Assembly: GCA_963730225.1 (NCBI GenBank)
Contig: CAVSQX010000001.1
Span: forward strand, 997,805-1,061,804
Origin: an uncultured Phycisphaerales bacterium
Lineage (GTDB): Bacteria > Planctomycetota > Phycisphaerae > Tepidisphaerales > Tepidisphaeraceae
Reading direction: 5' to 3'
DNA: 64,000 nucleotides
The position numbers and the translations under genes are program-made. The notes beneath the pieces are model-generated. The model was not told the origin of the DNA. It did not search any database and worked only from the letters and a program-made list of their open reading frames with translations. Numbering within the stretch: position 1 is the stretch's first letter; every line of letters starts with the position of its first letter. This document shows positions 22,336 through 56,356 of this stretch, one piece after another.

Positions 22336-22436
22336 AGGATAATTCTCGTCAGGGGATCGGGACGTCGACGGATCGACCGGAGTAGGAGATTTCGGCGTCG
22401 ACTTTTTCCGCGGGTTCCGGACCGACGCCGACGCCG

Positions 22437-31402: not shown

Positions 31403-31405
31403 GCG

Positions 31406-33685: not shown

Positions 33686-34801
33686 TTATAGCGGGATCAA
33701 AGAGCCAAGGCGAAAAAAGGGGAACGACGAATGAGGTACTTCGTAGATCATTCGGGAATTTGCGCTGATCCGATTTTCCGCCTTGGGCAGGCGAAGTTCG
33801 GACCGCGGCGGAGCGGTGGAGGCGCGGACAATCAGATCTTCGGGGACTCGAATTTCGGTTCCCTGATGGGCCCGTGGAGAAAGCAGGCCGTTGAGAAGAA
33901 GATCCGCGCCGATTCGGCCCATCTCGCGGCCGGAGACGGCGACGGCCGTCAGCGGGGGAGCAAGCAAGGCAACGGGGAAAACATCATTGAAACAGATCAG
34001 GCTGAAGTCGGCGGGAATGCGCAGATTCATCGCGTCGGCCGCGCCAACCAGCATTACGGCGATGTGATGATCGTAAGTGATGACGGCGGTGGCGTTGTCT
34101 TCGATGACGGCGCTGCGGAGAAAATCGGTGGCGGAGGAAAATGGCGTGTCGTGGCCCGCCACCAGCCGCATGGAGCGCTTGCGGACGCCGGCCAGAAGCG
34201 TCTCGTAACGGTCGGTGACGCTGTAGTGGCTGAAATAGGTGGCGCGGGCGTTGGCGTAGGCGATGCGCTTGTGGCCAAGCTGTTGAAGATGTTCGATGGC
34301 TCGGTTGGCGCCCATCACATCGTCGGCCAACACGTAGGCGACGGGGTTGCCGACTCGCTCGTTGACGCAAACATAGGGAACACGGCGGCGGTCGAGTTCC
34401 TTGACGGTTTCGGACTTGGGGGCCTGCATCAGGATCGCGCCATCGAAACGCCAGAAGGGAAGAGCGCGCTCCAGATCGCTGATGGCGCTGAGCTCGAAGA
34501 AGACATCGTATCCGCCGGCGTGCAGAACTTCGGCCAAACCTTCGATCAGCGATTCGTTAATTCCTTCGGCGACGTGCGTTTGCGGGGAAGCAAAAAGGCC
34601 GACGATGCGCGTGCTGCGGCGATTGAGATTGCGGGCGGCCAGATCGGGGACGTAGCCGAGCTTGCGGGCGGTGTCGAGAATTTTTTCGCGGACCGCCTCG
34701 CTGGCGGAGAATTTTTGCTTGCCGTTGAGAACGCGGCTGACCGTGGCGGGGGTTACGCCACAGAGCTTGGCCACGTCGGTGATCGTCGGACGGTTCCCCA
34801 T
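33686..34801 (-). CDS. LacI-family transcriptional regulator
   Basis: Start at ATG 34801 gives the canonical HTH MGNRPTITDVAKLCGVTPATVSRVLNG, followed by a periplasmic-binding-protein-like sugar-binding core. The ORF in the track extends 13 codons further to 34840. Confidence 0.85.
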   Translation of the reverse strand: MGNRPTITDVAKLCGVTPATVSRVLNGKQKFSASEAVREKILDTARKLGYVPDLAARNLNRRSTRIVGLFASPQTHVAEGINESLIEGLAEVLHAGGYDVFFELSAISDLERALPFWRFDGAILMQAPKSETVKELDRRRVPYVCVNERVGNPVAYVLADDVMGANRAIEHLQQLGHKRIAYANARATYFSHYSVTDRYETLLAGVRKRSMRLVAGHDTPFSSATDFLRSAVIEDNATAVITYDHHIAVMLVGAADAMNLRIPADFSLICFNDVFPVALLAPPLTAVAVSGREMGRIGADLLLNGLLSPRAHQGTEIRVPEDLIVRASTAPPRSELRLPKAENRISANSRMIYEVPHSSFPFFRLGSLIPL

Positions 34802-34882
34802 GGGGGGAAGTATATCATGACTGGGGTCGAAACCATTCATGGGAAAAGCCAGCCCGCCCGGCCCGGTGGGCCGGCATAAACG

Positions 34883-36670
34883 TCAGGGGATCGATACCTC
34901 GGCCCGTGCGCCGCTGTGTGTGAGATCGACGGAATCGGTTTTGGTTTTGTCGGTGGTGATGGCGTAGGCGCCGAAGAATCCGCGAAAATGGGCCTGGCCC
35001 TGGGAATCTGTGGTGGTTGTGACATCGGTTTGCCATTGATGATGGACGAGATCGATGTACATCTGGCCATGGGGCCGCAGCGTCCAGTCGTCGGCGTAGA
35101 GCGCTCCCTGAGGCCGCCAATGCCGCTTGGACCAGAAACCCCAGAGCGTGATTCCTTTCACACTGGGCTCCGAAAATACAGCGATGAGATAATCGCGCAG
35201 GTAATCCGCCTGGAGTTGTCGGTCCGTCAGATCGAGACTCACTTCCGTCGATTCGATGGGCAAACCCAACTCGCTGAAATGATCGAGCACGTGAATAATC
35301 TGCGCCGGCGCGGGCAGATCGGTGCCGAAATGGGATTGAACGCCGATGCCGCCCAGCGGCGCGCCGTTTTTCTGGAGATACTGGATGGTGCTGTAGTACG
35401 CGTCGCGGTGACTGTTGACCTCGCCCCCCTCGACGATGCCGTAATCGTTGATGAATAGCGCGGAAGTGGGATCAGACTGGTGAGCGAGATTGAACCACTC
35501 GAGCATGATGCTACGGCCGCCCAGCGCGTCGACCAGATCATGATTGGCGTAAACTTCATTGACCACATCCCACTGAAAACACTGGCCGCGGAAGTGGGTC
35601 ATCATGAGCGTGATGTGATCGTCGATGCGGCGGCGCAGCTCGGGCGGATCGTTGGCGAACTGCTGGAGTTGCCTGGGCGACCAGTGCCAACTGGGCCAAA
35701 CCAAGTTGTGCCCGCGCACGGCGATGTGATGCGCCCGCAGCCAATCCATCGCCTGATCCACCTGCGGCGGAATGCCGTCCCAGGTGGCGTACCACTTCAT
35801 GTCGTTCTCGAACGTGGCCTGGTTAAAAAGCTCGGCGACGGTCTTTTGGTATTGAATATCATCGGGTGAATCTCCCAACAGATCGGCGGCGACAACACAC
35901 GTGCCCCAACCGAAGGCGTGGCGCTGAAGCACGGCGTGGATCGGGGCTCCGATCGTCGGTTTACCGGACGAATCGGTCACCTGGATGGTGAAATCGCCTT
36001 TGCGGATTTGCTCGATCCGAGCCAACGCCTGGGCACGCCAAGGGGCATTGGGATCATGCCCGACGTAGTCCTTGCTCGTGCGCGGCAGCGTTTCCAGCTT
36101 GGCATCGGGCCCGAGGTCGAGCAGTTCGATGCCGCCGATTTCGACGGTCTGACGATCAAATCCTTCGAAAAACGCGATCTGGCCCTGTCCGGTAGGAACA
36201 GCGCGGCGGGCGCAGAACGGAAGAAAACATTCCTTCCACTGCCCGCCAGCGCTGACGCGGAGTTCGGCCATTGGATCGGAATTACCGGCGCCGAAAATGA
36301 ATCGCGTGAAACCCTGAGCGGTCGCTGATTCGTCGCAGCGCAGGAAAAAATGCGCGAGAAGCACATCGTTGGCGGCGACGGCGCCGGTGGTCGCGGAAAT
36401 CAATTCGCTGTTCGACTCGGCCGTCGCACCGGAATCAGTGGAGATTTTCATCGCTTGCGTGAAGCTCTTACCATCGACCGACACCGGTGCAACGTGGCAG
36501 AGATTCGCTTGCGAGCCTGTCACGTGAAGGGCGTTGAGAACATCGGCGCCGAGCAGAGACTTTCCCGACGGGACAGGGTCCGCGGCAAAGGCGAAGGAAG
36601 CTATACCGCAGACCAGCGCCGCGGCCAGAGTTCCACGCTGCCGCCACTGGGGTTTGGATCGGCGGAGCAT
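34883..36670 (-). CDS. Glycoside hydrolase family 10 endo-1,4-beta-xylanase with an N-terminal carbohydrate-binding-like domain
   Basis: Signal peptide. The GH10 blocks WDVVNEV (acid/base glutamate) and IESTEVS (nucleophile glutamate) and WGFWS are present. The N-terminal about 200 aa are CBM4/9-like. Confidence 0.85.
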   Translation of the reverse strand: MLRRSKPQWRQRGTLAAALVCGIASFAFAADPVPSGKSLLGADVLNALHVTGSQANLCHVAPVSVDGKSFTQAMKISTDSGATAESNSELISATTGAVAANDVLLAHFFLRCDESATAQGFTRFIFGAGNSDPMAELRVSAGGQWKECFLPFCARRAVPTGQGQIAFFEGFDRQTVEIGGIELLDLGPDAKLETLPRTSKDYVGHDPNAPWRAQALARIEQIRKGDFTIQVTDSSGKPTIGAPIHAVLQRHAFGWGTCVVAADLLGDSPDDIQYQKTVAELFNQATFENDMKWYATWDGIPPQVDQAMDWLRAHHIAVRGHNLVWPSWHWSPRQLQQFANDPPELRRRIDDHITLMMTHFRGQCFQWDVVNEVYANHDLVDALGGRSIMLEWFNLAHQSDPTSALFINDYGIVEGGEVNSHRDAYYSTIQYLQKNGAPLGGIGVQSHFGTDLPAPAQIIHVLDHFSELGLPIESTEVSLDLTDRQLQADYLRDYLIAVFSEPSVKGITLWGFWSKRHWRPQGALYADDWTLRPHGQMYIDLVHHQWQTDVTTTTDSQGQAHFRGFFGAYAITTDKTKTDSVDLTHSGARAEVSIP

Positions 36671-36678
36671 AGTGGCGG

Positions 36679-37698
36679 TTAGTAGTTTGGGTTCACGTAG
36701 ATGTTCTTGCGCAGAAGGGAGGTCGTTGCATTAACGGTGGTCGTGCCGGTTTTAATCATCTTGAGCGTAAAGCTCTCAACATGGCCATCGACCATCAGCA
36801 CGTTACACACTGTGTTATTCAAGTGACGAAAGCGAATGTTGTTGGGATTCGCGGAGGTATCGGTATTCCAATACTTGGCCGCGGGGCTAGCTGTCGCGCC
36901 GGCGGGAGTCATATCGATTTGATCATTCGGGCGCAGACCCGTGTTGGCGGGGAGTGAATAGTCATCGGTGAAATAGGTGGTTCCCGATCCATATGAGTTG
37001 CTGCCCGGGTAAAAAAGGCGCCAGCCATCCATGGATCCGGCAACAGGGTAAGTGTACCAAGGACCCCAACTGAGCGCGTCGGCGTCGGTGACACCGACTT
37101 GCGTGTTCGGGGCCAGCGAATCATCAAACACGATGCCGATTTCCGCGCTTCGCTTGATGTTGGATTGGTGATACGGGACCGGCCATCTGCCGGTAACGGC
37201 ATCTCGAACAACATTGTTGTCCAGAACCGGCATCAATCGCGGATTGCAAGCGTAATGGCCGATGGTTATCCATCCCTGGCCGGGCGCGTCAGGGCACAGA
37301 AAAGTCTGCCTGCTGATCTGCATCAGCACGTTGGCGTTGGCGACTTCGTTGTAGCTGTTCCCATTCTTCCCGTTCATCGTGTACTGGAGCAGATTGACCC
37401 AATTCGAAGCTAACACGGTATTGGGTTGATTGCTGGTTGATACGAAACCGGTTTGCGAATTGTAGTACCCGTCCCACACCCCAAACGGCAGGACGCCTTT
37501 GCTGTCGATGCAATAGATGGCCAGCATCTGACCAATGCTGTGCAAATTGGCCTGGCACTTCAGAGAATTGGACTGCTGGCGGGCTTTGTTTAGCGCGGGG
37601 AGGAGAATCGAGATCAGCAAAGCGATGATCCCAATGACAACCAGCAGTTCAACTAATGTAAAACCCGAGAAGCGAGAGGCGTTTTTGGCGCTCCGCAT
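36679..37698 (-). CDS. DUF1559 domain protein (prepilin-type N-terminal methylation motif, type II secretion pseudopilin-like)
   Basis: Start [40 protein letters not shown] is a class III signal peptide/prepilin motif. It lies 8 bp upstream of the GH10 start. Confidence 0.85.
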
Positions 37699-37761: not shown

Positions 37762-37775
37762 GGTAAACGTTTACC
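37762..37775. promoter_or_regulatory. Predicted LacI-family operator, a perfect 14-bp palindrome GGTAAACGTTTACC
   Basis: Perfect palindrome with a central CG. On the minus strand it sits 1 nt downstream of the TACGAT -10 element (37777..37782), which has TTGACC at -35 (37800..37805) with a 17-bp spacer. It is about 65 bp upstream of the DUF1559-GH10-LacI operon start. Confidence 0.6.
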
Positions 37776-37909
37776 TATCGTAACGGGTTGGGTCTACGTG
37801 GTCAAGAAGATTTCGCTCTTTTTTCAAGGTGCTCAGCCCAGGCTAGTTGGCTGTACCGACTGGGATATCTGGGGAGAATATGAAAACAAACATAAAAAGC
37901 GAATTTTTC

Positions 37910-37953
37910 TTGACGAGCCCCGACCAGCTGATATATTTGGGTAATCGTTTACC
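37910..37953 (+). promoter_or_regulatory. Sigma70-like promoter (TTGACG-16 bp-TATATT) followed directly by operator copy GGTAATCGTTTACC (37940..37953)
   Basis: -35 at 37910..37915 and -10 at 37932..37937. The operator starts 3 nt after the -10. Located about 115 bp upstream of the PEP-CTERM gene start (38067). Confidence 0.55.
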
Positions 37954-38066
37954 CATGGGCGTGGAGTGCTGATTCCAAGCTTGTGGGTTCGATCGGAGTG
38001 GACGCAGAAACTCACTTCAGCCGCAGAGTCAGCCGGTTGGCTGGCGGCAAACTTATGGAGGGTCGC

Positions 38067-39095
38067 ATGAATAGGTCACCTAGGCGGTTCGTAGCTCCAA
38101 TTTGCGCCGCGGCAATTGCCGGCGCTTTGAGCTATGGGCCCACTGTATTTGGTTCAACGGGCAATTTCTCCAGCCCGCTGACCAATGCATTTTTATCCGT
38201 TGACATTAACGGCGGGCCGCTCACCAGCGCGGTAACCCCCACCAACGGTTACAACGACAACACCAGCGCCGGCGCTTTTTCGGCCGACAATTTTGGTGTC
38301 GTATGGACGCCTTGGGGCGGAAACGCCTACGCCGGCGGTGATGGAACGCAGTTGCCGTCGAGCCAATCGCCGACCGTCGTTTCGGCATCGAGCATTTCGA
38401 AGACCTTTTCGATCAACGGCCCCCCCGTCACCGACAACACGTATTTTAATCCGCCGTTCCTGGGGCAAACGACGATCCAACCGGTAACGGCGACAATCAG
38501 CATCGACACGACGAACAACACATCGCAATATGCACAGGTGGGTGGCGTGGCTTCGATGAACTCGCGCGACCGCGGGACTCCAACCGGTGCAAACGGCTTG
38601 AACGACAGCGACATGTTCCGCGATCTGCTTTTCGCCGGCGGCAGCGGCAGCAACGTGCAGGGAACCAATTTCATTCAGGTTCTGTTCGGAGGATTGACCC
38701 CCGGACAGAGCTACGAAATTGCGATGTATTCGTACGATTCTTCCGGCGGCCACACCACCAACTGGACCGATGTGGCCCCCACTACTTCCGGTGGGCTGGA
38801 TGGATGGTGGGCGTCTTCGCCCGCGGGTAATAACACGTTCACGGCACCGACGGAACAGTCCATCACATGGACCTCAGGCACGACCCCCGCACCGGCGATC
38901 TTCGACGAAGTCGCTAACAGCAATGGCCTGGTCACGCTGTGGGCCTGGGGTGGCAATGGCGTTACTGGAAATCAAAGCTCCGACACCACGTATGTGAACG
39001 GTTTCCAGATTGCCGCCGTACCGGAGCCTGGTTCGATAGGCTTGCTCGCATTGTCTAGCATCGGGTTGATCGCTCGCCGACGTCGCAGGGAGTGA
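38067..39095 (+). CDS. PEP-CTERM sorting-domain surface protein
   Basis: Signal peptide MNRSPRRFVAPICAAAIAGALS. Ser/Thr/Gly/Asn-rich body. C-terminus AVPEPGSIGLLALSSIGLIARRRRRE is PEP-CTERM plus a transmembrane helix plus an arginine tail. Confidence 0.75.
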   Translation: MNRSPRRFVAPICAAAIAGALSYGPTVFGSTGNFSSPLTNAFLSVDINGGPLTSAVTPTNGYNDNTSAGAFSADNFGVVWTPWGGNAYAGGDGTQLPSSQSPTVVSASSISKTFSINGPPVTDNTYFNPPFLGQTTIQPVTATISIDTTNNTSQYAQVGGVASMNSRDRGTPTGANGLNDSDMFRDLLFAGGSGSNVQGTNFIQVLFGGLTPGQSYEIAMYSYDSSGGHTTNWTDVAPTTSGGLDGWWASSPAGNNTFTAPTEQSITWTSGTTPAPAIFDEVANSNGLVTLWAWGGNGVTGNQSSDTTYVNGFQIAAVPEPGSIGLLALSSIGLIARRRRRE

Positions 39096-39295: not shown

Positions 39296-39309
39296 GGTAA
39301 ACGATTACC
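39296..39309. promoter_or_regulatory. Predicted LacI-family operator copy GGTAAACGATTACC
   Basis: Same 14-mer as the other three sites. It lies 18 bp upstream of the GH52 start codon (GTG 39328). Confidence 0.5.
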
Positions 39310-39327: not shown

Positions 39328-41583
39328 GTGTCGGCAGTACCGCCGCCCTTTGGCGGGAATATAAACTTCAACGCCCAGCATTCGCCGATGGGGGCGTTCA
39401 TGAGCTTCACCTGCGGGCACTTCGGCAGCGGCGGTGGCATCGGCATTGAAATCGGCAGGCCCGCGACCCAGAGCATCTACGTTGGCGTGAAGAAGGGAAC
39501 CCGGCGGTCCAATCAACCGATCCGCTGCCTGCCATTTGCCAAATCCGGCGCGGCTGGGTCCGGAGCAAATTTCCAGGTTGAAAACTCCACCGATTCACCC
39601 GGCAACGCCGGCGCATCCGTGGAATTCTATTCGCCAGATCAGATTACCCGGCGATACGGCTGGGCGAGCGACCGTTGGGATACGGAGGACTTCTCTTTCA
39701 CCATATACACGCCCTTTGGTCCGATTCCCGAGCCCGGCACCGATTCCGATACATTGCGCGAATCGCTGCTTCCCGCCGTGGTCGTCTGTCTCGAGGTGGA
39801 CAATCGCTCCGGTTCTGAACCGAAGACGGCCGTTTTTGGAATCGACTTCGCTGAGGCCGGCGCCCGGCTGCTTCAAGGCGGCGACGCCTGGGCCGACGGG
39901 CCGGCAAAACTGGGCTTCGCCTGGCGGCGAAGCATGGGCGTGCTGGGCATGGTCGAAGGCTCCGCCGCCGGAAGCGGAGGCGGTTTACTGGCGCTCCAGC
40001 GCTGGTCGCTTGCCGAGGCGCTGATCGATGTGAATCCGGCGCACGGATTGGGAACCAGCGCGGGGCTGGCCCTGGAAGTGGCCGCCGGAAGCAAGCGAAC
40101 GATGGTGTTGGCCATCGGCGCTCATTTGGATGGAGTCGTCACCACCCGCCTGGAAGGCCGATATTACTACACTCGATTCTACAGCAGCCTCGATGAAGTG
40201 CTTGCCGCCGCCTTGCAGCAGTCGGCCGATCTGCGCCTGCGCTCGGCTTTGCTGGACGCCGAACTTCTTTCCAGCGGATTGTCTACCGATCAGCAGTTTC
40301 TCATCGCCCACGCTACCCGCAGCTATTACGGAAACACTCAGCTTCTGGACGTCGGCGGCGAACCGTTCTGGATCGTCAACGAGGGGGAATACTGCATGAT
40401 GAACACGCTGGATCTTTCGGTCGATCAGGTGTTCTGGGAGTTGCAGCACAATCCGTGGGTGGTTCGCAATGTGTTGACGAACTTCGTCCGGCACTACGCC
40501 TATCACGATCAGGTGAAAACGCGCGGTGGTCAGGTGCTGCCGGGCGGAATTTCCTTCGCACATGACATGGGCGTCAACAACGGGTTTTCCGCTGCCGGCC
40601 AGAGCAGCTACGAGCTGGCCAATCTAACCGGCTGCTTCTCGTATATGACGCAGGAAGAGCTGTGCAACTGGATTCTGATGGCGGTCTGTTATGTAGCTCG
40701 GACCGGCGACACGCGCTGGCTGCTGGAGAACGGGCACGTCATCGCCGCCTGCGCCGACAGCCTGCGCTGCCGCGCGAACTTGCGAACCGGCATGATGGCC
40801 CACGACAGCACCCGCTGCGGAACGGGCCAGGAAATCACCACCTACGATTCTCTGGATGAATCGCTTGGCCAGGCGCGGGCCAATACATATTTGGCGACCA
40901 AGTGCTGGGCGACATGGATTGGACTGGATTTGCTGGCACGCCTGCGCAGTGCCACCGGAGCGGAGGATTCCTCCGATACGGGGCCGAACCTCGCCGACGA
41001 TCTGGCGGATTTCCTGGTGCGCTCGGCTACGGCCGAAGGAACGCTTCCCGCGGTGCTGGAGAAAGATAATCCGGGATTTCATTCGCGGATTCTGCCCGTG
41101 GTCGAAGCCCTGATCTATCCGGCTTATTGGCTGGGTTGCTTGCAGCAGCACGCTCCGGCGCAGATTACCGAGCCGCTGCGCCGGCGATGGTCCGACCCGT
41201 TGATCGACCTGCTGCGCCGCCACACGCTGGCGCTGCTGACGGACCCGGGTCGTCCCAATCTTTTCCCCGATGGAGGGATCAAGCTTTCCAGCAGTTCGAA
41301 CAATTCGTGGATGAGCAAGATCGCCATGTTTCAATTCGTCTGCCGCGCCGTTCTGCGGCTGACTGACGCCGAGCCGCGCATCGCTGATATCTTTGCGGCG
41401 GCCGACGCGGCCCACGTTTCATGGCAAACGCTTGGATGCGGTCATTGGGCGTGCAGCGACCAATTCGTCAGCGGACGAGCCAAGGGAAGCCGGTATTATC
41501 CAAGAGTCATCACCGCAGCGCTGTGGCTGGACGAAAAATCCGCCGCGCGGTTGAAGCCGGCGGCGGAGCGGGTACCTCAGTAA
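39328..41583 (+). CDS. Glycoside hydrolase family 52 beta-xylosidase (cytoplasmic)
   Basis: No signal peptide. Colinear with Geobacillus XynB2-type GH52. Matching blocks include NFNAQHSPMGAFMSFT, RSYYGNTQLLDVGGEPFWIVNEGEYCMMNTLDLSVDQVFWEL, GISFAHDMGV, ITTYDSLDESLGQAR, FPDGGIKLSSSSNNSWMSKI and GSRYYPRVITAALWLDE. Confidence 0.85.
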   Translation: MSAVPPPFGGNINFNAQHSPMGAFMSFTCGHFGSGGGIGIEIGRPATQSIYVGVKKGTRRSNQPIRCLPFAKSGAAGSGANFQVENSTDSPGNAGASVEFYSPDQITRRYGWASDRWDTEDFSFTIYTPFGPIPEPGTDSDTLRESLLPAVVVCLEVDNRSGSEPKTAVFGIDFAEAGARLLQGGDAWADGPAKLGFAWRRSMGVLGMVEGSAAGSGGGLLALQRWSLAEALIDVNPAHGLGTSAGLALEVAAGSKRTMVLAIGAHLDGVVTTRLEGRYYYTRFYSSLDEVLAAALQQSADLRLRSALLDAELLSSGLSTDQQFLIAHATRSYYGNTQLLDVGGEPFWIVNEGEYCMMNTLDLSVDQVFWELQHNPWVVRNVLTNFVRHYAYHDQVKTRGGQVLPGGISFAHDMGVNNGFSAAGQSSYELANLTGCFSYMTQEELCNWILMAVCYVARTGDTRWLLENGHVIAACADSLRCRANLRTGMMAHDSTRCGTGQEITTYDSLDESLGQARANTYLATKCWATWIGLDLLARLRSATGAEDSSDTGPNLADDLADFLVRSATAEGTLPAVLEKDNPGFHSRILPVVEALIYPAYWLGCLQQHAPAQITEPLRRRWSDPLIDLLRRHTLALLTDPGRPNLFPDGGIKLSSSSNNSWMSKIAMFQFVCRAVLRLTDAEPRIADIFAAADAAHVSWQTLGCGHWACSDQFVSGRAKGSRYYPRVITAALWLDEKSAARLKPAAERVPQ

Positions 41584-41606: not shown

Positions 41607-41970
41607 TCAGTGGCGTCGGCGCCGCAGCAGGGCCAGACCGCCCAGGCCCAGCAGAGAGAGGCTGGCCGGCTCCGGCACGGCCACGCTTTCGCTGGCCGAT
41701 GCCTGCACCGCGCCGAGCGAAGCAATCTGCGGTCCCTGGGTATTGAAGGCGTTGTCAATCAGCGTGTAATCGTCGCCGTTGACGACGCCGTCGTAGTTAA
41801 AATCGCCGTTGCGCCAGCCGGTTAGGTTGTTGTTGAAACCGTTATCGATAAGCGTGTAATCGCTGCCGTTCACAACCCCGTCGAGATTGGCGTCGCCGAA
41901 GTACGTGTATTTCACGAGCACGTCGCCGTCCGCCGTGCTTTGGCCTTCGAAGGTGCTGGTCAGCGCGGCG
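41607..41970 (-). repeat. Paralogous C-terminal anchoring cassette (copy 1 of 2): YNGG-W-GT...VLVKYTYFGDANLDGVVNGSDYTLIDNGFNN-LTGW-NGDFNYDGVVNGDDYTLIDNAFNTQG + PEP-CTERM
   Basis: About 120 codons that are nearly identical in protein, and about 85% identical in nucleotides, to 48403..48770. Confidence 0.7.
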
Positions 41971-43679
41971 CCGGAACCGTTGTCGTTCAGTTCAACGCCG
42001 ATAGCGGTGTTCTTGGTCCCCGCCGCCAACGAGGAGTACATTCCACCGGTACCGTTCCAGGTTCCGCCGTTATAGCCCTGCTTGATCTGGTCGGTGATGT
42101 TCGCGAGTTCCGTCGCTCCACCGCCGGTGATGATCATGTCGTTGTTGCCCAAATCCAGCTTGCCGGTCCAGGCACCCAACGATCCGGAGAAGGTCAGCGT
42201 CGGAGTGACAAGAAAGGTTTGATTGCCCGGCGTCGACGGAGCGAAGACGACGGTGCCGCTGGAACCGACGTTCAACGCTGCGACGTTCTGAACAATCTTC
42301 CCGGTTCCGGCATTGGCGACGAAATTGAGGATGCCGCCCGGATAAATCGCCGAGCCGGTCGCCAGCGATCCATTGACGACGTTGAGCGTTCCGCCGGGAC
42401 TCAGAACAGTCGCGCTGTTGTCGGTCGAAGGAGCCGAAAGGGTCACACTGCCGGACCCGGAAACGGTGAGGTTTCCCGTGCCGCTGATGCCACCGCTGAG
42501 GGTCAGGGAAGCGCCGGTGGAAGCGCTCAAGGTAACACCCGCGACGACTGCAACCGGAGCGGTAATCGTGTGACTGCCGGTCATCGCACTGATCAAGGGG
42601 TTTACCGTGCCGCTGGGGTCTCCAGTGTCGTTGATCGTGAGTATTCCGCCGGCCGGATTGGTTCCCTGGGCGATGATGTAAGTGGAGGTGTTGTTGAAGG
42701 TGATTTGGCCAACCGTCTCATTCCCGTCGAGCGTAACGGTACCGGGCGCATTGACGGCGGTGAGGCTGGAGCCGAAAGTGGCCTGATCCGCCGGGCCGTT
42801 TGGAATTGCCGAGCCCGACCAGTCACTAGTGGAATTCCAGGTTCCGCCGCTGGTCGGCAGCCAAGTGGCCTCGATCACCGACGGCGCCGGATAAACGGCG
42901 AAGAGCAGGCTTCGCGCTCCGCCACCGACCAGCGTGCGCTCTTCGGGACTGTAGGCTTCTTGTTCATCGCCGATCTGATTCTTGGCGTGATAGGTTCCGC
43001 CGCCAGGTGTTGTTTGAGAATTCGACCGGTAGGCATACAGCGTGGTGTTGCTGGAGGGTGTGTCCCAGATTTCAAAATCATAGGTGACGCCCGCAGTGAG
43101 CGCGACCTGATCGGTGCCGGAGAAATCCAGTTCTGTCACCTCATAGTTTCCGCTGCCGTTGTAAGTGAAGGAAAGGTTTCCGGTTGGGTTAGCCGGTGTA
43201 CCGCCACCCAGCAAGTCGGGACTTGTTTGCGCGACCGGGTTGGTCCCGTCGCCGAGGGTAAATCCACCGGCCGTTTCGTAGGAAGAGTCGGCCGCGGCGA
43301 GGGTGAACAGATGAACGGTGAAACCATTCATGGTTGCCGGAGGTGTGGATGGACCACCGGAGTTCACGAACGAGATTGCCCCAAGGTTGAAGCCGGTAGT
43401 CGGCGTGAAAGTCATGGCCTCCACGAAACCCGGCGAGATGGTTTCAACGGTTTGCCCGGTATTGGGCGAACCCTGGGCTCCGCCGGTTCCGCTGGTGATG
43501 ATGGGATTGGTTCCGATGAGCGAGGGGATGGCGGTGGTTGCGCCGGGCCAATAGGTGGGCAAAGCGCCGGACGTGGCTCCGATCGGATTGATCGTGACGC
43601 CGGCTTGCACGGAAAAGCCCGTCAACGCTGACGTAACGCCGCACGAAACGGCCAATAGCAGTTTTTTCTTGCTTGACAT
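41607..43679 (-). CDS. Secreted repetitive surface protein with a C-terminal dockerin-type repeat pair and PEP-CTERM anchor
   Basis: Signal peptide MSSKKKLLLAVSCGVTSALTGFSV. Gly/Thr/Ser/Asn-rich beta-strand repeats. C-terminal DANLDGVVNGSDYTLIDNGF...DFNYDGVVNGDDYTLIDNAF (two dockerin-like Ca-binding loops), then VPEPASLSLLGLGGLALLRRRRH. Confidence 0.8.
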   Translation of the reverse strand: MSSKKKLLLAVSCGVTSALTGFSVQAGVTINPIGATSGALPTYWPGATTAIPSLIGTNPIITSGTGGAQGSPNTGQTVETISPGFVEAMTFTPTTGFNLGAISFVNSGGPSTPPATMNGFTVHLFTLAAADSSYETAGGFTLGDGTNPVAQTSPDLLGGGTPANPTGNLSFTYNGSGNYEVTELDFSGTDQVALTAGVTYDFEIWDTPSSNTTLYAYRSNSQTTPGGGTYHAKNQIGDEQEAYSPEERTLVGGGARSLLFAVYPAPSVIEATWLPTSGGTWNSTSDWSGSAIPNGPADQATFGSSLTAVNAPGTVTLDGNETVGQITFNNTSTYIIAQGTNPAGGILTINDTGDPSGTVNPLISAMTGSHTITAPVAVVAGVTLSASTGASLTLSGGISGTGNLTVSGSGSVTLSAPSTDNSATVLSPGGTLNVVNGSLATGSAIYPGGILNFVANAGTGKIVQNVAALNVGSSGTVVFAPSTPGNQTFLVTPTLTFSGSLGAWTGKLDLGNNDMIITGGGATELANITDQIKQGYNGGTWNGTGGMYSSLAAGTKNTAIGVELNDNGSGAALTSTFEGQSTADGDVLVKYTYFGDANLDGVVNGSDYTLIDNGFNNNLTGWRNGDFNYDGVVNGDDYTLIDNAFNTQGPQIASLGAVQASASESVAVPEPASLSLLGLGGLALLRRRRH

Positions 43680-43710: not shown

Positions 43711-43753
43711 GGTAAACGATTACCTACAATACTTCGGGTTATGGGCGTGTCAA
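43711..43753 (-). promoter_or_regulatory. Sigma70-like promoter (TTGACA-16 bp-TATTGT, minus strand) followed directly by operator copy GGTAATCGTTTACC (43711..43724)
   Basis: Read on the minus strand the sequence is TTGACAcgcccataacccgaagTATTGTaGGTAATCGTTTACC. The operator ends about 30 bp upstream of the ATG (43679) of the dockerin/PEP-CTERM gene. The site is also in the divergent region upstream of the ABC transporter operon (43834). Confidence 0.6.
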
Positions 43754-43833: not shown

Positions 43834-45239
43834 ATGAAATTGCAACCCAGAACACCTCGACCGCTCTGGGGCGCCCTTGGCGTCATCTCGCCGGGGGCTT
43901 GGATCATTCTGATCCTCGCCGTGGTTTCCACGATTCTCGTGGCTTGCCGAACTTACCAACGCAAAGCCGGACTGGAGATGTGGGCGTTTGCCCAGGTTCA
44001 TGTCGCCATGTATGTGCCGCTGGTTCAGCAATGGAACCAAACACATGAAACCCAGGTGACGTTGATACCGCTGGGACACGACGTGCTCGCACAGCGGATG
44101 ATTTCCGGCTTCTTTTCCAAAACGCCTCTGGCGGACTTGATCGAGGTCGAGCGGGGAACCATCGGCGCGGTGTTCGGTGGGCCGCTGGACCAGGTTGGAT
44201 TTTGCGACTTGACCGACATTCTTCACCGCGATGGTGTGTACGAGCAGCTGAATGAGCCGTCCTTCAGTCCATGGACTTCCCGCGGACACATCTTCGGCCT
44301 GCCGCACGATGTGCATCCGGTCATGCTGGCGTATCGCGCTGATCTGGTCGAGCAGGCGGGCATCGATGTTTCGAAGATCGAAACGTGGGACGATTTCGTG
44401 CGGGCGTTTTCGCCGCTGATGAAGGATCTCGACAGTGAGGGCCATCCCAAGCATTACCCGTTGAATATCTGGACGACCGCCATCGGGCAGATCGAAGCGC
44501 TGATGCTTCAGGCGGGAGGAAACTATTTCGACGAAGACGGCCGGCCGATTATGGATTCTCCACAGAACGCTCGGGTGATTTCCACGGTGGTGTCGTGGGT
44601 TACCGGTCCGGGCCGAATCGCCGCCGACGCGCCGGAGTTCACCGCCATGGGGAATCAGCTGAAGTTGCAGGGATATGTCGTTGCATCGCTGGCTCCGGAT
44701 TGGTTGCTGGCGACGTGGAAACAAGATCTGGGCGGATTGAGCGGCAAAATGAAGCTGATGCCGCTGCCGGCGTGGGATCGCGGCGGCCGGCGCACCAGCG
44801 TGTGGGGCGGGACCATGCTCGGCATTCCCAAGGCCAGCCCGAATTTCGATAAGGCGTGGAATTTCGCCAAGACCCTTTATCTTTCACCCCAGATAGCTCA
44901 AAGGCTTTACGAGCGGGCCGGAATCGTGACACCCGTCAAGCGATTGTGGGAGCAGCCTTTCTTCGACGTGCCTTCCCCCTTTTTCTGCGGCCAGGCGCCG
45001 GACGGATGTACATCAACCTCGCCCGCCAGGTCCCGCCGCGAACCAGCTCGCCGTTTTTTAATCTCGCCGAAGATCGGCTCCAGGATGCCGTTCTGGCCCT
45101 GCGCGATTATGCCGACGCCCATCATGTCTATGACCCCAAAGAATTGATGCCCGAAGCACGTCGACTCCTGGCCATCGCGCAGGAACAGGTACGGCGGCAA
45201 ATGGACCAGAATCTTTTCATCAAGGGGCAAAAGTCGTGA
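43834..45239 (+). CDS. ABC transporter substrate-binding protein (carbohydrate, solute-binding family 1), with an apparent frameshift near 44995-45005
   Basis: N-terminal anchor helix then a family 1 solute-binding fold (ORF 43834..45147). The C-terminal 80 aa (GRMYINLARQVPP...LLAIAQEQVRRQMDQNLF) continue in frame +1 (ORF 44856..45239). The junction is FFCGQAP / GRMYIN. Confidence 0.75.
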
Positions 45240-46123
45240 TGCGAAGCCGGCAACAGACTTTGGCCCCCTACTTCTTTCTGGCGCCCTTCGTGCTGATTTT
45301 CTGCACGTTTACGGCGTATCCACTTTTTCAGTCGATTCTCCTTTCGATGCGGCAAACCTACGGGCCGGGGCTGGCGCGATTTGTCGGATTCTACAATTAC
45401 CGTTTTCTGTTCTCCGATCCGCTCTTCTGGACGGCCGTTTACAATACAACTGTTTTTGCGATGGGCTCGCTCTTCATTCAACTGCCCTGCTCGCTGGCGC
45501 TGGCGGTTTTGCTGAATCGAAAAAACCTGCCGGGGCGTTCCGTCTTTCGGCTGATCTTTTTCTCGCCATCGCTGGTGGGGCTGATTTTCGTCGGGATGCT
45601 CTTCACCCTGATCTTCGACAAAAACACCGGGCTGATGAATGTGTCGCTGCATCGGCTGGTTGGATGGAATCTGGAATTCCCCTGGCTTGAGCGATACGTG
45701 CGGCCGGCGCTGATCCTCGCCGCGTTCTGGATGTACGTGGGATTCAACATGGTTTATTTCCTGGCTGCACTTCAAAGCGTCGAGCCGGAGTTGGTCGAAG
45801 CGGCCGCGGTGGACGGGGCCGGGCCTTGGCGAAGATTTTTTCACGTCACGCTGCCAGCAATTCGGCCCGTCGGGTTGTTCGTTGTGCTGCTGTCGTTGCT
45901 GGGTAGCTTTCAGCTTTTCGAGTTGCCGTACGTCCTGTTCTTCAACAGCGGGAATGAAAACGGACCGGACAATCAGGCGCTCACGGTCGTAATGTATCTG
46001 TACCAGAATGGATTTGAGCGCGGCGATCTGGGTTACGCCAGCGCGGTCGGATGGGTGCTGGCTCTGCTACTGATTCTGTTGGCGGTCGGCTATCGGATGC
46101 TGGCACGGGCGGAGGAGCGATGA
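45236..46123 (+). CDS. Carbohydrate ABC transporter permease (MalF/UgpA-like)
   Basis: Six transmembrane helices and an EAA-like loop (ALQSVEPELVEAAAVDGAGPWRRFFHVTLP). Overlaps its neighbours by 4 nt. Confidence 0.85.
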   Translation: MMRSRQQTLAPYFFLAPFVLIFCTFTAYPLFQSILLSMRQTYGPGLARFVGFYNYRFLFSDPLFWTAVYNTTVFAMGSLFIQLPCSLALAVLLNRKNLPGRSVFRLIFFSPSLVGLIFVGMLFTLIFDKNTGLMNVSLHRLVGWNLEFPWLERYVRPALILAAFWMYVGFNMVYFLAALQSVEPELVEAAAVDGAGPWRRFFHVTLPAIRPVGLFVVLLSLLGSFQLFELPYVLFFNSGNENGPDNQALTVVMYLYQNGFERGDLGYASAVGWVLALLLILLAVGYRMLARAEER

Positions 46124-46956
46124 AACGGGCCGCGGTTTATCTCGTGCTGATTTTTCTATCGGTTTTGACGCTGGTGCCCTTTGCGTATCTGGCCAGCGCC
46201 TCACTGAAGCCGGCGGCGATTATGTTCGACTCGCTCTTTCTGCCAACGGGCAAGGGATTTTTGGGAATCGCCTGGAGCCAGTTGACGCTTCAGCACTTCC
46301 TCGATGCGATTCATCAGCCGACGTTTACGCAGAACGTCATCAACTCATTTTTCTACGCCTCGGTCACCAGCGTGCTGGCTACGCTCAGCTGCGCCATGGG
46401 CGGATACGCACTGGCGATGTTCCGATTCCGCGGCAGAACCATTCTCACCAACCTGGTGCTCGCGGCGTTGGTGATTCCGGCGACGTTGCTGCTGGCGCCA
46501 ACCTACCAATTGATCTACCGATTCGGGCTGATCGATACCATGACGGGATTGATTTTCCCCGGCCTTGCCCCGGCATTTGGAATTTTTCTGTTCCGCCAAA
46601 GCATGATCAACACCTTTCCGCGCGATCTGATGGAAGCCGCCCGCATCGACGGCTGCGGCGAGCTGCGAATGTTCTTCTCCATCGCCCTTCCGATCGCCCG
46701 GCCGATGATCAGCGCGTTTCTGCTCATCACCTTCCTCGCCTGCTGGAACGATTTCATTCATCCGCAGATCATCCTCCAATCGCTGGAGCGATTTCCGCTT
46801 TCGGTGGCGATTGCCCAGATGAAGGATTACTACTCGCAGGATTACGGCCTGCTGATGGCCGGCACTTTGATCTCGATCCTGCCGGTGATGGTGTTGTTCC
46901 TGCTGCTTCAGCGCGAGTTCATCTCGGGACTGACGTCCGGCGCGGTGAAGGGATAA
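46120..46956 (+). CDS. Carbohydrate ABC transporter permease (MalG/UgpE-like)
   Basis: Start MKRAAVYLVLIFLSVL overlaps the previous stop (ATGA). EAA motif MEAARIDGCGELRMFFSIALP. Confidence 0.85.
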   Translation: MKRAAVYLVLIFLSVLTLVPFAYLASASLKPAAIMFDSLFLPTGKGFLGIAWSQLTLQHFLDAIHQPTFTQNVINSFFYASVTSVLATLSCAMGGYALAMFRFRGRTILTNLVLAALVIPATLLLAPTYQLIYRFGLIDTMTGLIFPGLAPAFGIFLFRQSMINTFPRDLMEAARIDGCGELRMFFSIALPIARPMISAFLLITFLACWNDFIHPQIILQSLERFPLSVAIAQMKDYYSQDYGLLMAGTLISILPVMVLFLLLQREFISGLTSGAVKG

Positions 46957-48402: not shown

Positions 48403-48770
48403 TCAACTTCTACGCCGTCGTCGCCAAAGAACGGCCGCGGCAACCGCGGCGACGCCCAAATTTCCCGGCTCCGGCACGGCTGCCAAGGATCCGCCGGCAA
48501 TCTGCGACGTTGGGATCGCCACCATCTCCATTGGCTCCGCCGCCAGCGATGCCCCCTGCGTATTGAACGCATTGTCAATGAGCGTGTAGTCGTCGCCGTT
48601 GACGACGCCGTCGTAATTGAAGTCTCCGTTGTGCCACCCCGTCAGCGTGTTGTTAAAGCCGTTATCGATCAGCGTGTAGTCGCTGCCATTCACAACGCCA
48701 TCCAAATTGGCATCACCAAAATAAGTGTACTTCACCAACACGTCGGTGCTGGTGACGCTCTGACCATCGA
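48403..48770 (-). repeat. Paralogous C-terminal anchoring cassette (copy 2 of 2)
   Basis: Dockerin pair plus PEP-CTERM module shared with the 41607..43679 gene. The two dockerin pairs differ at only two residues (NNNLTGWRNG versus NNTLTGWHNG). Confidence 0.7.
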
Positions 48771-51700
48771 AGCTGCTGAGCAGAACTCCCCCGGAACCGT
48801 TGCTGTTCAACTCGACGCCCAGAGCCGTATTCGACAAGGCGGCCGCCGAGGATGACGTAATGCCCGCCGTTCCGTGCCAATTACCCCCATTGTATCCCTG
48901 GGCAATCTGGCTGGTGATTGCCGTGGCGTTGCCGTTGTGCACGACTAAATCGTTGCCGCTCAGGTCCATCAATCCCGAATTGCTCAGCGACCCCGTGATC
49001 AGCACCGTGCGATTGGCCGAGGCCGACGGTGCCGCGATCGAAAGGGTGGCCGGCGTGGCGCCGATCGCAAGCGAGCTCCAGGTGCGAGCGAGAATCCCGC
49101 TACCGGGATTGGCGCCGACTTTGATCGTGCCGTCGTCCGTGACATTCGGCGTGTTGGTGAGCAGGCCGTTAATGTTGCCCGTCGCGCCGGAGGCGACGTT
49201 GAAGTTGGCGCTGGCGATCGTGCCGCTCGCAGCCAAGGTCAGCACGCCATCGTTGACGTTGGTGTTTCCGCCGTAGGTGTTGATGGCCGTCAACGTTACC
49301 GTTCCAGCGCCGTTTTGATTGACCACCCCGCCACCGCCGATCGCGTTGGCGACCATCAAGCCTGCATCGCCGCGGTTGAAATTCAGCGTATCATTATCGG
49401 TGACCGGCCCGGTGCCCAGCGTTCCGCCGCTCCCGCCGTCGCCAATTTGCAATATCCCGGCGGTGATCGTCGTGCCGCCGCTGTAGGTGTTGGCTCCGGA
49501 GAGAATCACCGGCTCCTGCGCAGCTGGAGCGGTCGGGGCGTTAACCTTCACCAGCGCGATATTGCCGGTGATCGCGCCGGTGAAATCGGAAGCGGTTGGC
49601 CCGACGCCGTTGCCGGTGCCCAGCGAGAGCGTGGAAGTTATGCCGGTCTGTGAATTGATAAGCGTTCCCGACCCGGTCAGCTTGTCGAACCCCTCGCTTT
49701 GGCCGTTCATGTCGAAGGTGCCGTTCATGTTGAAGACGCCGAAATCCGTCGTCCCGGTGACAAAGCCGTCATAAATCTGATCGCCGCCGGTGCCGGCCAA
49801 TTGCAGGACCGCGCCGGGGCTGACACCGGTGACCGTCGAGGCGGCGTGAGCGGTGCCGCTGCTGGTCTTGCCGAGGACCAGCGTGCCGGACGTGACAGCC
49901 ACCTCGACATTGGTGTTGTCCGTCGTTCCCGTCAGCAGAATCACGCCGGTGCCGTTCCCGTTGGCAGTGAGAATGTGGCCCGCTCCGGGCGCCGGCGCCG
50001 CGCCGTCAACCTGAAGTTCCAGAGTCGAGTCGGCGGCGGCGACGATGTTGGAATTCCCGACCAGCGTGAACGTGCCGGTGGCCGGTGAGACGGCTGCGTT
50101 TCCGGTTTTCAGCACAGCGCTGGAATTGGGCAGATTATTTTCCAGTGTGCCTGCGCCCGTGGCGTCTCCGAGACTGAGATTGAAGATCGTTTCGCTTTGC
50201 CCGTTGAGATCAAAAACTCCACCGTCGTTGATCGTGACACCGCCGGCCAAATCATAAATCTGATCCCCGCCGCTGCCCGTGATCTGGGCGGTGCCGCCGT
50301 TGTTGATGACCAATCCGCCACCGCCGACGGCGTGCGCGGCGCTGCTGGAAGTCTTGTTCAGCAAAACGGTGCCCTGGTTCACCGTAACGCCCAGACTCGC
50401 ATCGTCCGCCGTGCCGGAGATGATCAGGGTGCCAAGCCCCGTCTTGACGATGCCCGCTCCATCACTGCTGCGCGAAACCGCGCCGGTGAACTCCACGTCG
50501 CCGGCCAGCCCATCGGGCAGCAGGCCCGCAACGGCAGCGACGTTGTACGTGACGGTATTGCCGGCCAGCGTTTGGGTGCCGCTGAGAATCAACTTGCCAA
50601 CATTCTGCACCGTGGTGGCCGCGCTGGCGGTGATCGCATTGGGAATGGTCGTCGCCGACGCATAATTCAGCGTGAGCGTGCCCCCGCCCAGAGTCAGCGT
50701 CCCGCCGAATCCGGAAATGTCGCTGCTCAACACGACCAGCGAGCTTGCTCCGCTGATGCCGAAGCTGCCGCTGCCGGAAAGCGCCCCGGTGATCGACAGC
50801 GTGTCTCCGTCGGTCGACGCAAAACTCACGGCCTCTCCGGGATTGGACATCGGCGTGCTCAGCCCGATCGATTGATTCGCCGCTCCGCCGGCAGGCACGG
50901 ATTGGAACGCAGTGACGGTGGAGTTGTTCAGAATCGTAATCGGATTGGTAAACGTGTAGCTGGCCGAAGCGCTCAGGCCCATGTTGCCGCCGTCGAGCAG
51001 GATCGTCGCGCCTCCCAGGCTGCTGTTGACGCCGTCGCTCTCGCCGGCCAGTGTGCCGTTTTGAATATCGTACGACGTGCCCGCCGTCGCGCCGGAAATC
51101 GTGTTGCCCAGCGTCCACGTGCCCGTGCCAAGCATCACGACATTTCCGCTTCCGCTCAGTGAGTTGGTCAGTACGCCGTCGCCCGCGCCGCCGAGGGTGA
51201 GCGTGGAAGTACCGTTGGTGATCGTGCTGCTGACGGTGAGAAGTTGTCCGGCCGTCGCGTTGGAAATTCCGCCACCGCCGGCCGCCAGGGTGAGACCGCG
51301 CGTGAGCGCGGCACTGTTCCCGGTGTATTGCAGTGTGCCGGAATCCACCGTCGCATCACCCAGCGTGATGTTGTTCGAGCTGGTGCCCAGTGGCTGGGCC
51401 GTGCCCGACGCCGCCAGCGCCGAAACGCTGAGCGTGCCGTTGGGGACCGCAACGTTGCCGCTGTAGGTGTTGGCTCCGCTGAGGAAAAGCGTCCCGCCGC
51501 CGGCGACTGTCAGACTTCCGCCGCCGCCGGTGATGGTTCCGCCGAAGCTGCCGGAGCCGACCGTCAGCGCGGTCGGTCCATTCAAGTGCACCGTTCCGCT
51601 GCTGCCGCCCAGGGACGCGATGGTTTGGCTGGCATTGCTGAATGTCGCCGCTCCGTTCACCGTCAGCGCATCGCCGCCGCCCAGCGCCGGCCACATTCAG

Positions 51701-54700: not shown

Positions 54701-55075
54701 GGTATTGAGATTGACTGCGCCGGGAAGATTGAAATAAACATCGTCTCCGCTTCCGGGCAGGGCGTTGGAATCGTTATCGAAATCGTCGGAGGAAGACCAG
54801 TTCACATTGGCCGGCCCGCCGGTGGTGTTCCAAACCGTGTCGTGATCCCCGGTCCAGAAAAATGATGCCGCTGCCGCCGAGCCCGCCATCGCCCCACTGG
54901 CCGACAACGCTGCCGCCAGCAGAGCCGTTCCCGACCACTGCTTTCCGCCATGCCGATGATGCCGCGCGTAGCCGATTCTCCGCCGAATCATGGAACCCTC
55001 CATCTGGAAATGAAACCTGCCGCACTCCAGCAATCGCTCAGACCTGTCCACGGTACAACGTAGATCGCCCTCCAC
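48403..55075 (-). CDS. Giant (about 2,200 aa) cell-surface protein with PATR (autotransporter-associated beta-strand) repeats, a C-terminal dockerin pair and PEP-CTERM anchor; split by an apparent frameshift near 51690-51720
   Basis: N-terminal part 51356..55075 has a signal peptide (MIRRRIGYARHHRHGGKQWSGTALLAAALSASGAMA; likely start about 54991) and repeats of LTLSGANSYSGSTSLSG type. C-terminal part 48403..51696 continues the same repeats (GGTLFLSGANTYSGNVAVPNGTLSV...) in another frame. The upstream tail after ...SLNVAGAG is Arg-rich junk. Confidence 0.8.
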
Positions 55076-56317: not shown

Positions 56318-56356
56318 TGTCGCAAAACAGAGAAGTTTTGGCGCAAAATGACGTGG
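56318..56356. promoter_or_regulatory. About 39-bp conserved element (copy B), tgtcgcaaaacagagaagttttggcgcaaaatgacgtgg
   Basis: Inverted copy of 55082..55121. It lies in the divergent region between xylR and the DUF1559-GH5 operon, about 45 bp upstream of the DUF1559 start. Confidence 0.55.

Follow-up and report, generated by a model that had tools for sequence, protein, structure and literature searches.

Pilin-like proteins of a DUF1559 sister branch are encoded beside secreted glycoside hydrolases in an uncultured Phycisphaerales bacterium

The closest precedent for a pilin-like protein that serves a secreted protein encoded next to it is found in enterotoxigenic Escherichia coli (CofB-CofJ) and Vibrio cholerae (TcpB-TcpF). 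In these systems, a large minor pilin at the tip of the pilus binds a soluble protein that is encoded in its own gene cluster and depends on the pilin for export; each pilus operon holds a single such pair along with the genes for the assembly machinery. Here, we studied a comparable arrangement in 64 kb of the genome of an uncultured Phycisphaerales bacterium (Tepidisphaeraceae; GCA_963730225.1, CAVSQX010000001.1:997,805-1,061,804; this whole stretch is referred to as the window). Two prepilin-like genes, copy 1 (36679..37698, minus strand) and copy 2 (56397..57398, plus strand), each lie directly upstream of a gene for a secreted glycoside hydrolase (GH), of family GH10 and GH5, respectively. 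In contrast to CofB-CofJ and TcpB-TcpF, there are many pairs per genome, all of them away from the machinery. We suggest, with a probability of roughly 0.4, that each pilin-like protein acts as a partner-specific minor pseudopilin that helps to export or display the secreted protein with which it is co-encoded.

Several other described systems resemble this arrangement in part. The pseudopilins of the type II secretion system (the major pseudopilin GspG and the minor pseudopilins GspH/I/J/K) share with the window proteins a prepilin-type leader, an N-terminal helix, and a structural match to EpsG; however, the window proteins score far below the equivalog cut-offs, align over only ~56 N-terminal residues, have bodies about twice as large, and are encoded outside a gsp operon, each before a different secreted-protein gene. 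In Caldicellulosiruptor bescii, a xylan-responsive pilin, PilA, is likewise encoded beside polysaccharide-degradation genes (bioRxiv 10.1101/614800), but PilA is the major pilin of a complete type IV pilus locus in a Gram-positive organism, binds polysaccharide itself, and lacks a gene-by-gene pairing to individual enzymes. The bindosome of Sulfolobus solfataricus offers a case of class III signal peptides on sugar-utilization proteins that are not classical pilins (PMC3047682). Those proteins are genuine solute-binding proteins of the ATP-binding cassette (ABC) type, whereas the window proteins have no such fold or family and a separate solute-binding protein (SBP) gene is present in the loci. 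Within the same phylum, pili-like fibers at the crateriform structures of Planctomycetes interact with a polysaccharide, dextran (PMC5394234). That description, from Planctomycetia, is based on microscopy only, links no gene to the fibers, names no subunit, and mentions neither “pilin” nor “type IV”; a connection between these dextran-binding fibers and the pilin-like family is speculative.

DUF1559-type prepilin-like proteins are among the largest paralogous families of Planctomycetota: Planctopirus limnophila has 68 copies, of which two are essential (PMC10632474), and Rhodopirellula baltica has 74 (PMC2754498). No function for them was found in the open-access literature, where the papers that mention DUF1559 describe a large family whose function is unknown or, nominally, one that binds solutes (PMC2754498); neither DUF1559 nor pilins appear in a 2025 review of the phylum. 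A limited open-access literature search found no description of DUF1559-type or pilin-like genes paired with GH genes, and no settled account of enzyme secretion and polysaccharide capture by these bacteria in the absence of SusC/D-type systems. What is new here is the view of pilin-like proteins as operon-specific partners of secreted carbohydrate-active enzymes (CAZymes), a pairing that offers an initial clue to what one branch of this very large and functionally uncharacterized family does.

Both window proteins are type-IV-pilin-like (pseudopilin-like) and carry an intact class III signal peptide. In agreement with the original prediction, the open reading frame (ORF) listing, direct reading of the sequence, and matches to PF07963 and TIGR02532 all support the two genes at the coordinates given above. 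Each leader has G-1, F+1, and E+5 around the cleavage site, which follows RFSG or RLAG, and continues into a hydrophobic helix of ~20 residues. PF07963 (N_methyl) scores 25.1 bits in both copies (cut-off 21.2), and TIGR02532 scores 20.5 in copy 1 and 19.0 in copy 2 (cut-off 16.3). The copies are 36% identical over their full length, and an 18-residue string at the start of the helix is the same in both while 10 of its 18 codons differ synonymously, which argues for selection at the protein level and not for recent gene conversion. The best NCBIfam matches include GspG, GspH, and ComGC; the GspG model TIGR01710 (134 positions) is matched only at model positions 1-59, with 33.4 and 32.7 bits against a cut-off of 88.85. 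A confident AlphaFold2 model (pLDDT 87.9) combines an N-terminal helix of 50 residues with a sheet at the C-terminus, and its only resemblances in the PDB, at low Z (at most 4.6), are to type IV pilins and the pseudopilin EpsG. The body matched no solved structure by sequence, and domain-model and structure searches detected no carbohydrate-binding module (CBM) or lectin family in it.

These structural results bear on a reading in which the protein is a membrane-anchored periplasmic binding or sensing protein that passes oligosaccharides to a transporter or regulator, with the signal peptide serving only to anchor or assemble it, much as in the bindosome. Sulfolobus sugar-binding proteins with class III signal peptides need a pilus-like assembly system (PMC3047682), the Pfam name of DUF1559 is SBP_bac_10 and the family has been termed solute-binding (PMC2754498), and ABC transporter genes are present in the same loci. 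However, no periplasmic-binding-protein fold occurs among the PDB matches of the model, the ABC transporter already has a canonical SBP_bac_1 protein encoded in these loci, and the pilin-like gene is coupled to a secreted enzyme, not to the transporter genes. Given the canonical SBP gene and a fold that is not of the binding-protein type, we regard such a sensing role as distinctly improbable.

The label DUF1559, which the original prediction applied to both genes, is only partly appropriate. Pfam DUF1559 (PF07596) reaches 16.8 and 22.2 bits, below its gathering score of 23.3 and over C-terminal stretches only; 11 canonical Planctomycetia DUF1559 proteins match the same model at E~1e-50 (~170 bits), and many homologs in the window subfamily have a precomputed PF07596 match. 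TIGR04294 (H-X9-DG; cut-off 19 bits) is passed by copy 2 (19.5) and missed by copy 1 (17.5), and in both copies the histidine lies 11, not 9, residues before DG. In copy 1, this C-terminal hairpin reads RFRH..NT..N.LMVDGHV. Profile alignment (hhalign) of the window subfamily (A1) with canonical DUF1559 (A5) gives a probability of 99.8% (E=9e-29), but the alignment ends at the CP(D/S) motif and spans only the first 133 columns. Because the PF07596 scores fall below the cut-off and the profile alignment is limited to those first 133 columns, by these sequence criteria both proteins belong to a Phycisphaerae/Tepidisphaerales-type sister branch of DUF1559. Features common to the window proteins and canonical DUF1559 of Planctomycetia are the near-identical class III signal peptide and N-terminal helix, massive paralogy, a conserved cysteine soon after the helix, a CP(S/D) motif, a C-terminal ..DG(S/H)V hairpin, and a small extracytoplasmic partner gene that is usually next. 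The two differ in their Pfam scores and in that the canonical partner is a CarboxypepD_reg-like lipoprotein, not a GH. Profile searches returned 2,101 clusters (50% identity) at E<=1e-30, which make up the subfamily, and 207,817 clusters (50% identity) at E<=1e-10 for the wider prepilin/DUF1559 superfamily; the named relatives come mostly from Tepidisphaeraceae and other Phycisphaerae. Some paralogs have a degenerate second prepilin motif (e.g., AFTLVELPAVSRRKAA) just upstream of the functional one (L088 4236-5426 and 6541-7689; L091 1353-2471), which looks like the remnant of a duplicated leader inside an extended ORF.

In both pairs, the pilin-like gene is promoter-proximal in a sugar-regulated operon and a gene for a Sec-secreted GH is next. 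Copy 1 (339 amino acids [aa]; first gene of its operon) starts at ATG 37698, preceded by AGGAG with a 6-nt spacer, and 8 nt (ccgccact) separate its TAA stop from the ATG of the GH10 xylanase gene (34883..36670, minus strand; 595 aa; Pfam Glyco_hydro_10 E=4e-49). In the GH10 protein, a Sec signal peptide and an N-terminal accessory domain precede the GH10 domain (residues 253-521), which is followed by a short beta-rich C-terminal tail. A LacI-family regulator gene (33686..34840, minus strand) follows as the third gene of the operon, so that both the 8-nt junction and the gene order had been described correctly. Copy 2 encodes 333 aa from 56397 or 329 aa from ATG 56409; the latter is the likelier start because GGAG lies 6 nt upstream and because this ATG coincides with the aligned starts of orthologs and agrees with the database gene call (P0121; 329 aa). 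The GH5 gene next to it (57395..58783, plus strand; Pfam Cellulase E=7e-30) has a frame that is apparently broken near 58755-58780. The predicted 4-nt overlap (GTGA) with copy 2 is found if GH5 starts at GTG 57395, but ATG 57413 is an equally plausible start and leaves a gap of 14 nt. Three apparent frameshifts within 15 kb, in the SBP, PATR, and GH5 genes, suggest indel errors of a long-read assembly, and the exact junction lengths could therefore be one base off. In both pairs, the pilin-like gene has a Shine-Dalgarno sequence and the GH gene has none of its own, and no operator or terminator was found between the two genes of either pair; this fits co-transcription and possibly coupled translation, the latter suggested by the spacing.

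No prepilin-motif gene other than copies 1 and 2 is present in the window, which contains ~50 genes, among them five GH genes (GH28, GH31, GH10, GH52, and GH5) and one for a BNR_4 protein; the chance that both pilin-like genes would fall directly upstream of, and co-oriented with, a GH is of the order of 0.01 or less. For statistics on the neighborhoods of DUF1559-type genes, cross-genome samples were used. The broad sample (80 loci from species-representative genomes of the Planctomycetes-Verrucomicrobia-Chlamydiae group, mostly matched via the N-terminal motif) contained 71 prepilin-like genes, and in 28 cases a co-oriented ORF followed at tight spacing. A GH was present in none of the 28 tight neighbors and in none of 10 large neighbors (0/28 and 0/10). 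About 11 of the 28 tight neighbors were small lipoproteins with a lipobox and a sub-threshold CarboxypepD_reg-like domain, and ten looser neighbors included one pectate lyase (Sedimentisphaerales) and three Phycisphaerae dockerin, PATR, or ConA-like proteins. The subfamily sample comprised 78 metagenome loci obtained via the body motifs RFRH[LM][GNR]NT and L[MF][VCI]DGHV; relatives were found with a body-only alignment, and a metagenome scan with copy 1 alone gave none. Twenty-three closer-relative loci had enough downstream sequence to be evaluated. Directly downstream, 10 of these 23 had a co-oriented GH (three GH10, three GH16, three PF10091 “glycoamylase,” and one Glyco_hydro_cc+CBM6) and 4 had a PATR/dockerin/PEP-CTERM protein, while 4 more of the 23 had a GH16-like gene within 6 kb. 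The difference between 10/23 and 0/28 is significant (Fisher p=9e-5; binomial tail against a 10% background, 3e-5). Genes in these loci were called as the longest non-overlapping ORFs, with some errors, and the GH10 neighbor in L109 was recovered only by tblastn. Enrichment for GH neighbors, which the original prediction had proposed as a check on DUF1559 at large, is thus seen in this subfamily and not in the broad DUF1559-type sample; as a general property of DUF1559 the link to CAZymes does not hold, because canonical Planctomycetia PF07596 proteins pair with a small lipoprotein.

The operons are conserved in orthologs at 39-55% identity. The order prepilin-like gene, GH10, LacI recurs in L081-L083, L173, L174, and the P0038 locus, with the position of the LacI-family gene kept in L081, L082, L173, L174, and the P0038 locus. 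P0003 (50% identical to copy 1) has this order on several metagenome contigs, where GH44, an ABC transporter, and a GH10-dockerin gene are nearby. For P0038, P0065, and P0040 (39-43% identical to copy 1), the order is one or more prepilin-like genes, an intervening 159-163-aa gene, GH10, (BNR_4), and LacI, and the loci also hold GH52, an ABC transporter, and PEP-CTERM/PATR/dockerin genes. Relatives of copy 2 show a corresponding pattern: P0122 and P0125 (52-55% identical) occur with a PATR protein, a divergent XylR-type regulator, GH5, and GH3; the order XylR-type regulator (divergent), prepilin-like gene, GH5, GH3 is that of L092 and L093; and P0128 adjoins a PL8 lyase. CAZymes were present within a few genes in 9/9 relative loci retrieved. 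All partners directly downstream have a Sec signal peptide, and the cytoplasmic GH52, a recurrent companion (L088, L090, L173, L174, and P0038 loci), is never the directly coupled one. A specific and conserved functional link, as opposed to generic piliation, had been predicted, and the kept operons, the 10/23 versus 0/28 contrast, and the clustering of the pilin-like proteins by partner all support it. Genes for PATR, dockerin, or PEP-CTERM proteins lie very often directly upstream of the prepilin-like gene (L104, L115, L126, L127, L133, L141, L153, L159, and L174), which suggests a recurrent three-part cluster with the pilin-like gene between a surface-protein gene and the gene of a secreted enzyme or small partner.

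The pilin-like proteins have diversified along with their partners, as seen in a neighbor-joining tree without bootstrap and an identity matrix, in which orthology makes the observations partly non-independent. They group by downstream gene into GH5, GH16, glycoamylase, and PATR/dockerin clades, the pair formed by copy 1 and L081 with GH10, and a second GH10 lineage (L104, with L109 and L138 assigned by their GH10 partners). Pilin-like proteins that share a partner type are on average 54.8% identical, and those with different partner types 40.1% (permutation p<=1e-4). Identities of partner and pilin-like protein run in parallel: 57.6% versus 54% for GH10 (the window enzyme against that of the orthologous operon L081) and 61% versus 55-58% for GH5. 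This parallel divergence fits an operon that is inherited and diversifies as a unit. The two GH10 lineages are 26% identical to each other and are paired with different pilin-like lineages.

Such clustering weighs on a further explanation of the pairing, in which the proteins have no partner-specific role and are interchangeable pseudopilin paralogs located in polysaccharide-utilization clusters, co-induced to boost type II secretion in general. Some adjacency is expected on this account, as the window and all related loci are rich in CAZymes; in addition, some relatives have tandem arrays without a co-oriented GH, and NCBI names some relatives “type II secretion system protein.” Against it stand the clustering by partner and the stereotyped position of the gene, immediately upstream, co-oriented, and promoter-proximal, in many lineages and with at least five GH families, as well as a GspG score far under the cut-off (33 vs. 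88.85). We consider interchangeable paralogs without a partner-specific role very unlikely.

The strongest competing account is substrate capture. Here, the variable body would be a lectin that binds the polysaccharide of the neighboring enzyme and is displayed on a pilus-like fiber or pseudopilus, so that the cell tethers xylan or glucan near its secreted enzymes and transporters. Co-induction with the enzyme is predicted under LacI- and XylR-type control, and the pilin-like clades track enzyme family and therefore substrate. Precedents are available in the pili-like fibers of Planctomycetes, which bind dextran (PMC5394234), and in C. bescii PilA, a xylan-induced pilin that binds cellulose as well as xylan (bioRxiv 10.1101/614800). 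However, the two pilin-like lineages paired with GH10 do not cluster despite the same expected substrate, the body contains no detected CBM or lectin family, and GH10 already has its own N-terminal accessory domain. Further, some partners are not enzymes at all (PATR/dockerin proteins and small membrane proteins), and for these a protein-protein pairing fits better than glycan binding. Substrate capture is thus a possible though doubtful reading, and the one that comes closest to our own.

Conserved gene adjacency tends to mark proteins that interact physically. For this reason, and because non-enzyme partners occur and the pilin-like lineages follow enzyme lineage and not substrate, we favor the partner-specific minor pseudopilin. 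In the mechanism that we propose, a prepilin peptidase would cleave the pilin-like protein, and a machine of the type II secretion or type IV pilus kind, with its genes elsewhere, would take it up as a minor (tip-type) pseudopilin specific to one partner. The pilin-like protein would physically bind the secreted protein encoded next door, which would be GH10 or GH5 here and, in other loci, GH16, a PF10091 “glycoamylase,” a GH128-like enzyme, a PATR/dockerin surface protein, or a small membrane protein. It would then carry this partner across the outer membrane or hold it on a short surface fiber.

Several observations weigh against the minor-pseudopilin reading. Neither a prepilin peptidase nor machinery for secretion or pili is encoded in the window or in the flanks examined. 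A body of 290 residues is large for a filament subunit, and no common N-terminal “tag” or recognition motif was seen in the mature partner enzymes. The tight coupling of the original prediction describes the close spacing at both window loci but not the relatives, in which the gap between the pilin-like gene and its partner ranges from 15 to ~225 nt, so that tight spacing is not conserved. In P0017 and P0016, tandem arrays of three or four paralogs converge on GH52 without a co-oriented GH, with a GH10 also present at the P0017 array locus. Finally, the loci are CAZyme-rich, and part of the enrichment is therefore gene-cluster membership.

Control by LacI- and XylR-type regulators, which had also been predicted, is supported by conserved operator-like elements ahead of the pilin-like genes. 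A perfect 14-bp palindrome, GGTAAACGTTTACC, is a candidate LacI-type operator at 37762..37775, directly after the -10 element of a promoter-like site that faces copy 1 (37777..37805, minus strand; TTGACC, 17 nt, TACGAT; a sigma-70-like consensus match only). Promoter and terminator scans of the window were otherwise at the level of shuffled sequence, this juxtaposition of promoter and operator at 37777-37805 being the exception. Versions of the palindrome with one mismatch lie at 37940..37953, ahead of a divergent PEP-CTERM gene; at 39296..39309, 19 nt upstream of the GH52 ORF; and at 43711..43724, between a dockerin/PEP-CTERM gene and the ABC binding-protein gene. The window thus holds four sites at <=1 mismatch, against 0.02 expected, and five at <=2; the fifth, with two mismatches (50947-50960), falls within the PATR gene. 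The palindrome also occurs upstream of prepilin-like genes in the orthologous L081-L086 and in L103, L104, L108, and L109, with GH10 downstream in L104 and L109. Copy 1 is probably the first gene of an autoregulated operon, and a LacI-type xylan regulon probably includes the prepilin-like-GH10-LacI operon, two PEP-CTERM genes, GH52, and the ABC transporter. The LacI-type protein would repress this whole xylan set through GGTAAACGTTTACC operators; in the proposed scheme, the secreted enzyme would cut xylan at the surface, oligosaccharides would be imported by the ABC transporter, and cytoplasmic GH52 would finish the degradation. Ahead of copy 2, a 39-bp non-coding block with an imperfect inverted repeat, TGTCGCAAAACAGAGAAGTTTTGGCGCAAAATGACGTGG (56318..56356), is nearly invariant among the window, L092, and L093 while the flanking proteins are only ~55% identical; it fits a candidate promoter or a binding site for the divergent XylR/AraC-type regulator.

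Partner-specific pairing under recognizable sugar repressors makes the family experimentally tractable, with copy 1/GH10 and copy 2/GH5 as the pairs at hand, and it yields a practical annotation rule, in that pilin-like genes may mark polysaccharide-utilization operons in Phycisphaerae. A wider proposal, which we think unlikely but worth stating, is that Phycisphaerae, and possibly the whole DUF1559 superfamily (>200,000 clusters at 50% identity), use a library of cargo-specific pseudopilins, in which an upstream-encoded “handle” loads each secreted enzyme, surface protein, or lipoprotein onto a shared machine of the type II secretion or type IV pilus-like kind, to be exported or displayed on fibers. 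If true, this would be a new logic of secretion and display specificity, and the pseudopilin library could give a molecular identity to the polysaccharide-handling fibers of Planctomycetes.

Two families of small partner proteins were encountered beside DUF1559-type genes. In canonical Planctomycetia loci (L026, L031, L036, L043, L056, L060, L062, L071, L072, and L078), the DUF1559 gene is followed within <=80 nt by a gene for a lipoprotein of 130-210 aa with a GC lipobox and a sub-threshold CarboxypepD_reg-like beta-sandwich, which looks like a conserved two-gene module. A hidden Markov model of 11 partners found no such lipoprotein in the window (best E=0.19), and the idea that it forms part of GH10 or GH5, or lies unnoticed at another site, was rejected. 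The second family, of 160-175 aa with one N-terminal membrane helix and no Pfam family, is encoded after prepilin-like genes of the Phycisphaerae type that are more distant from the window copies, in at least 24 metagenome loci (among them L125, L129, L133, L135-L137, L139, L141, L142, L145-L149, L151, L153, and L155-L159). A member lies between the pilin-like gene and GH10 in L173 (9377-9865), and none was found in the window. In the P0038 locus, the interval between the pilin-like gene and GH10 is occupied by a 159-aa gene, which may or may not belong to this family.

The neighbors of copy 1 include the divergent PEP-CTERM surface protein gene (37983..39095, plus strand), which probably belongs to the regulon of the copy 1 operon, and a GH52 beta-xylosidase-type enzyme without a signal peptide (39328..41583, plus strand). 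These are followed by a gene for a dockerin and PEP-CTERM surface protein (41607..43679, minus strand), homologs of which are encoded directly downstream of prepilin-like genes in L111 and L128, and by ABC sugar uptake genes (43834..46956, plus strand) that comprise an SBP_bac_1 gene, with an apparent frameshift near 45000, and two permease genes. In the interval 44856-45239, the last ~50 residues of the SBP gene product (43834-45147) look out of frame, and an overlapping ORF in another frame holds a plausible SBP C-terminus.

Next to copy 2, the XylR/AraC-type regulator (Peripla_BP_3 + HTH_18; 55152..56294, minus strand) is divergent from the prepilin-like gene, an arrangement that recurs in L092 and L093, and adjoins a gene for a giant PATR/dockerin/PEP-CTERM surface protein (48403..55075, minus strand). 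The latter reads as two overlapping ORFs (48403-51696 and 51356-55075; 1097 and 1239 aa), whereas its L092 ortholog is a single protein of 2053 aa; the break lies near 51360-51700, where the last ~110 residues of the upstream ORF are Arg-rich and look out of frame. Downstream of GH5, residues 167-309 of a 314-aa ORF (58777..59721, plus strand) match the C-terminus of orthologous GH5 proteins of 547 aa, and this ORF probably holds the C-terminal domains of the GH5 protein. The end of the GH5 frame and the next frame (58740-58800) read as one continuous ConA-like domain, and the break is either an assembly indel or a recent pseudogene. Elsewhere in the window, two long ORFs without a Pfam or NCBIfam match overlap on opposite strands (31310-32674, plus; 32539-33642, minus), and a GH28-GH31 gene pair without an adjoining pilin-like gene (20812-24704, minus strand; 4-nt overlap) forms a further CAZyme operon.

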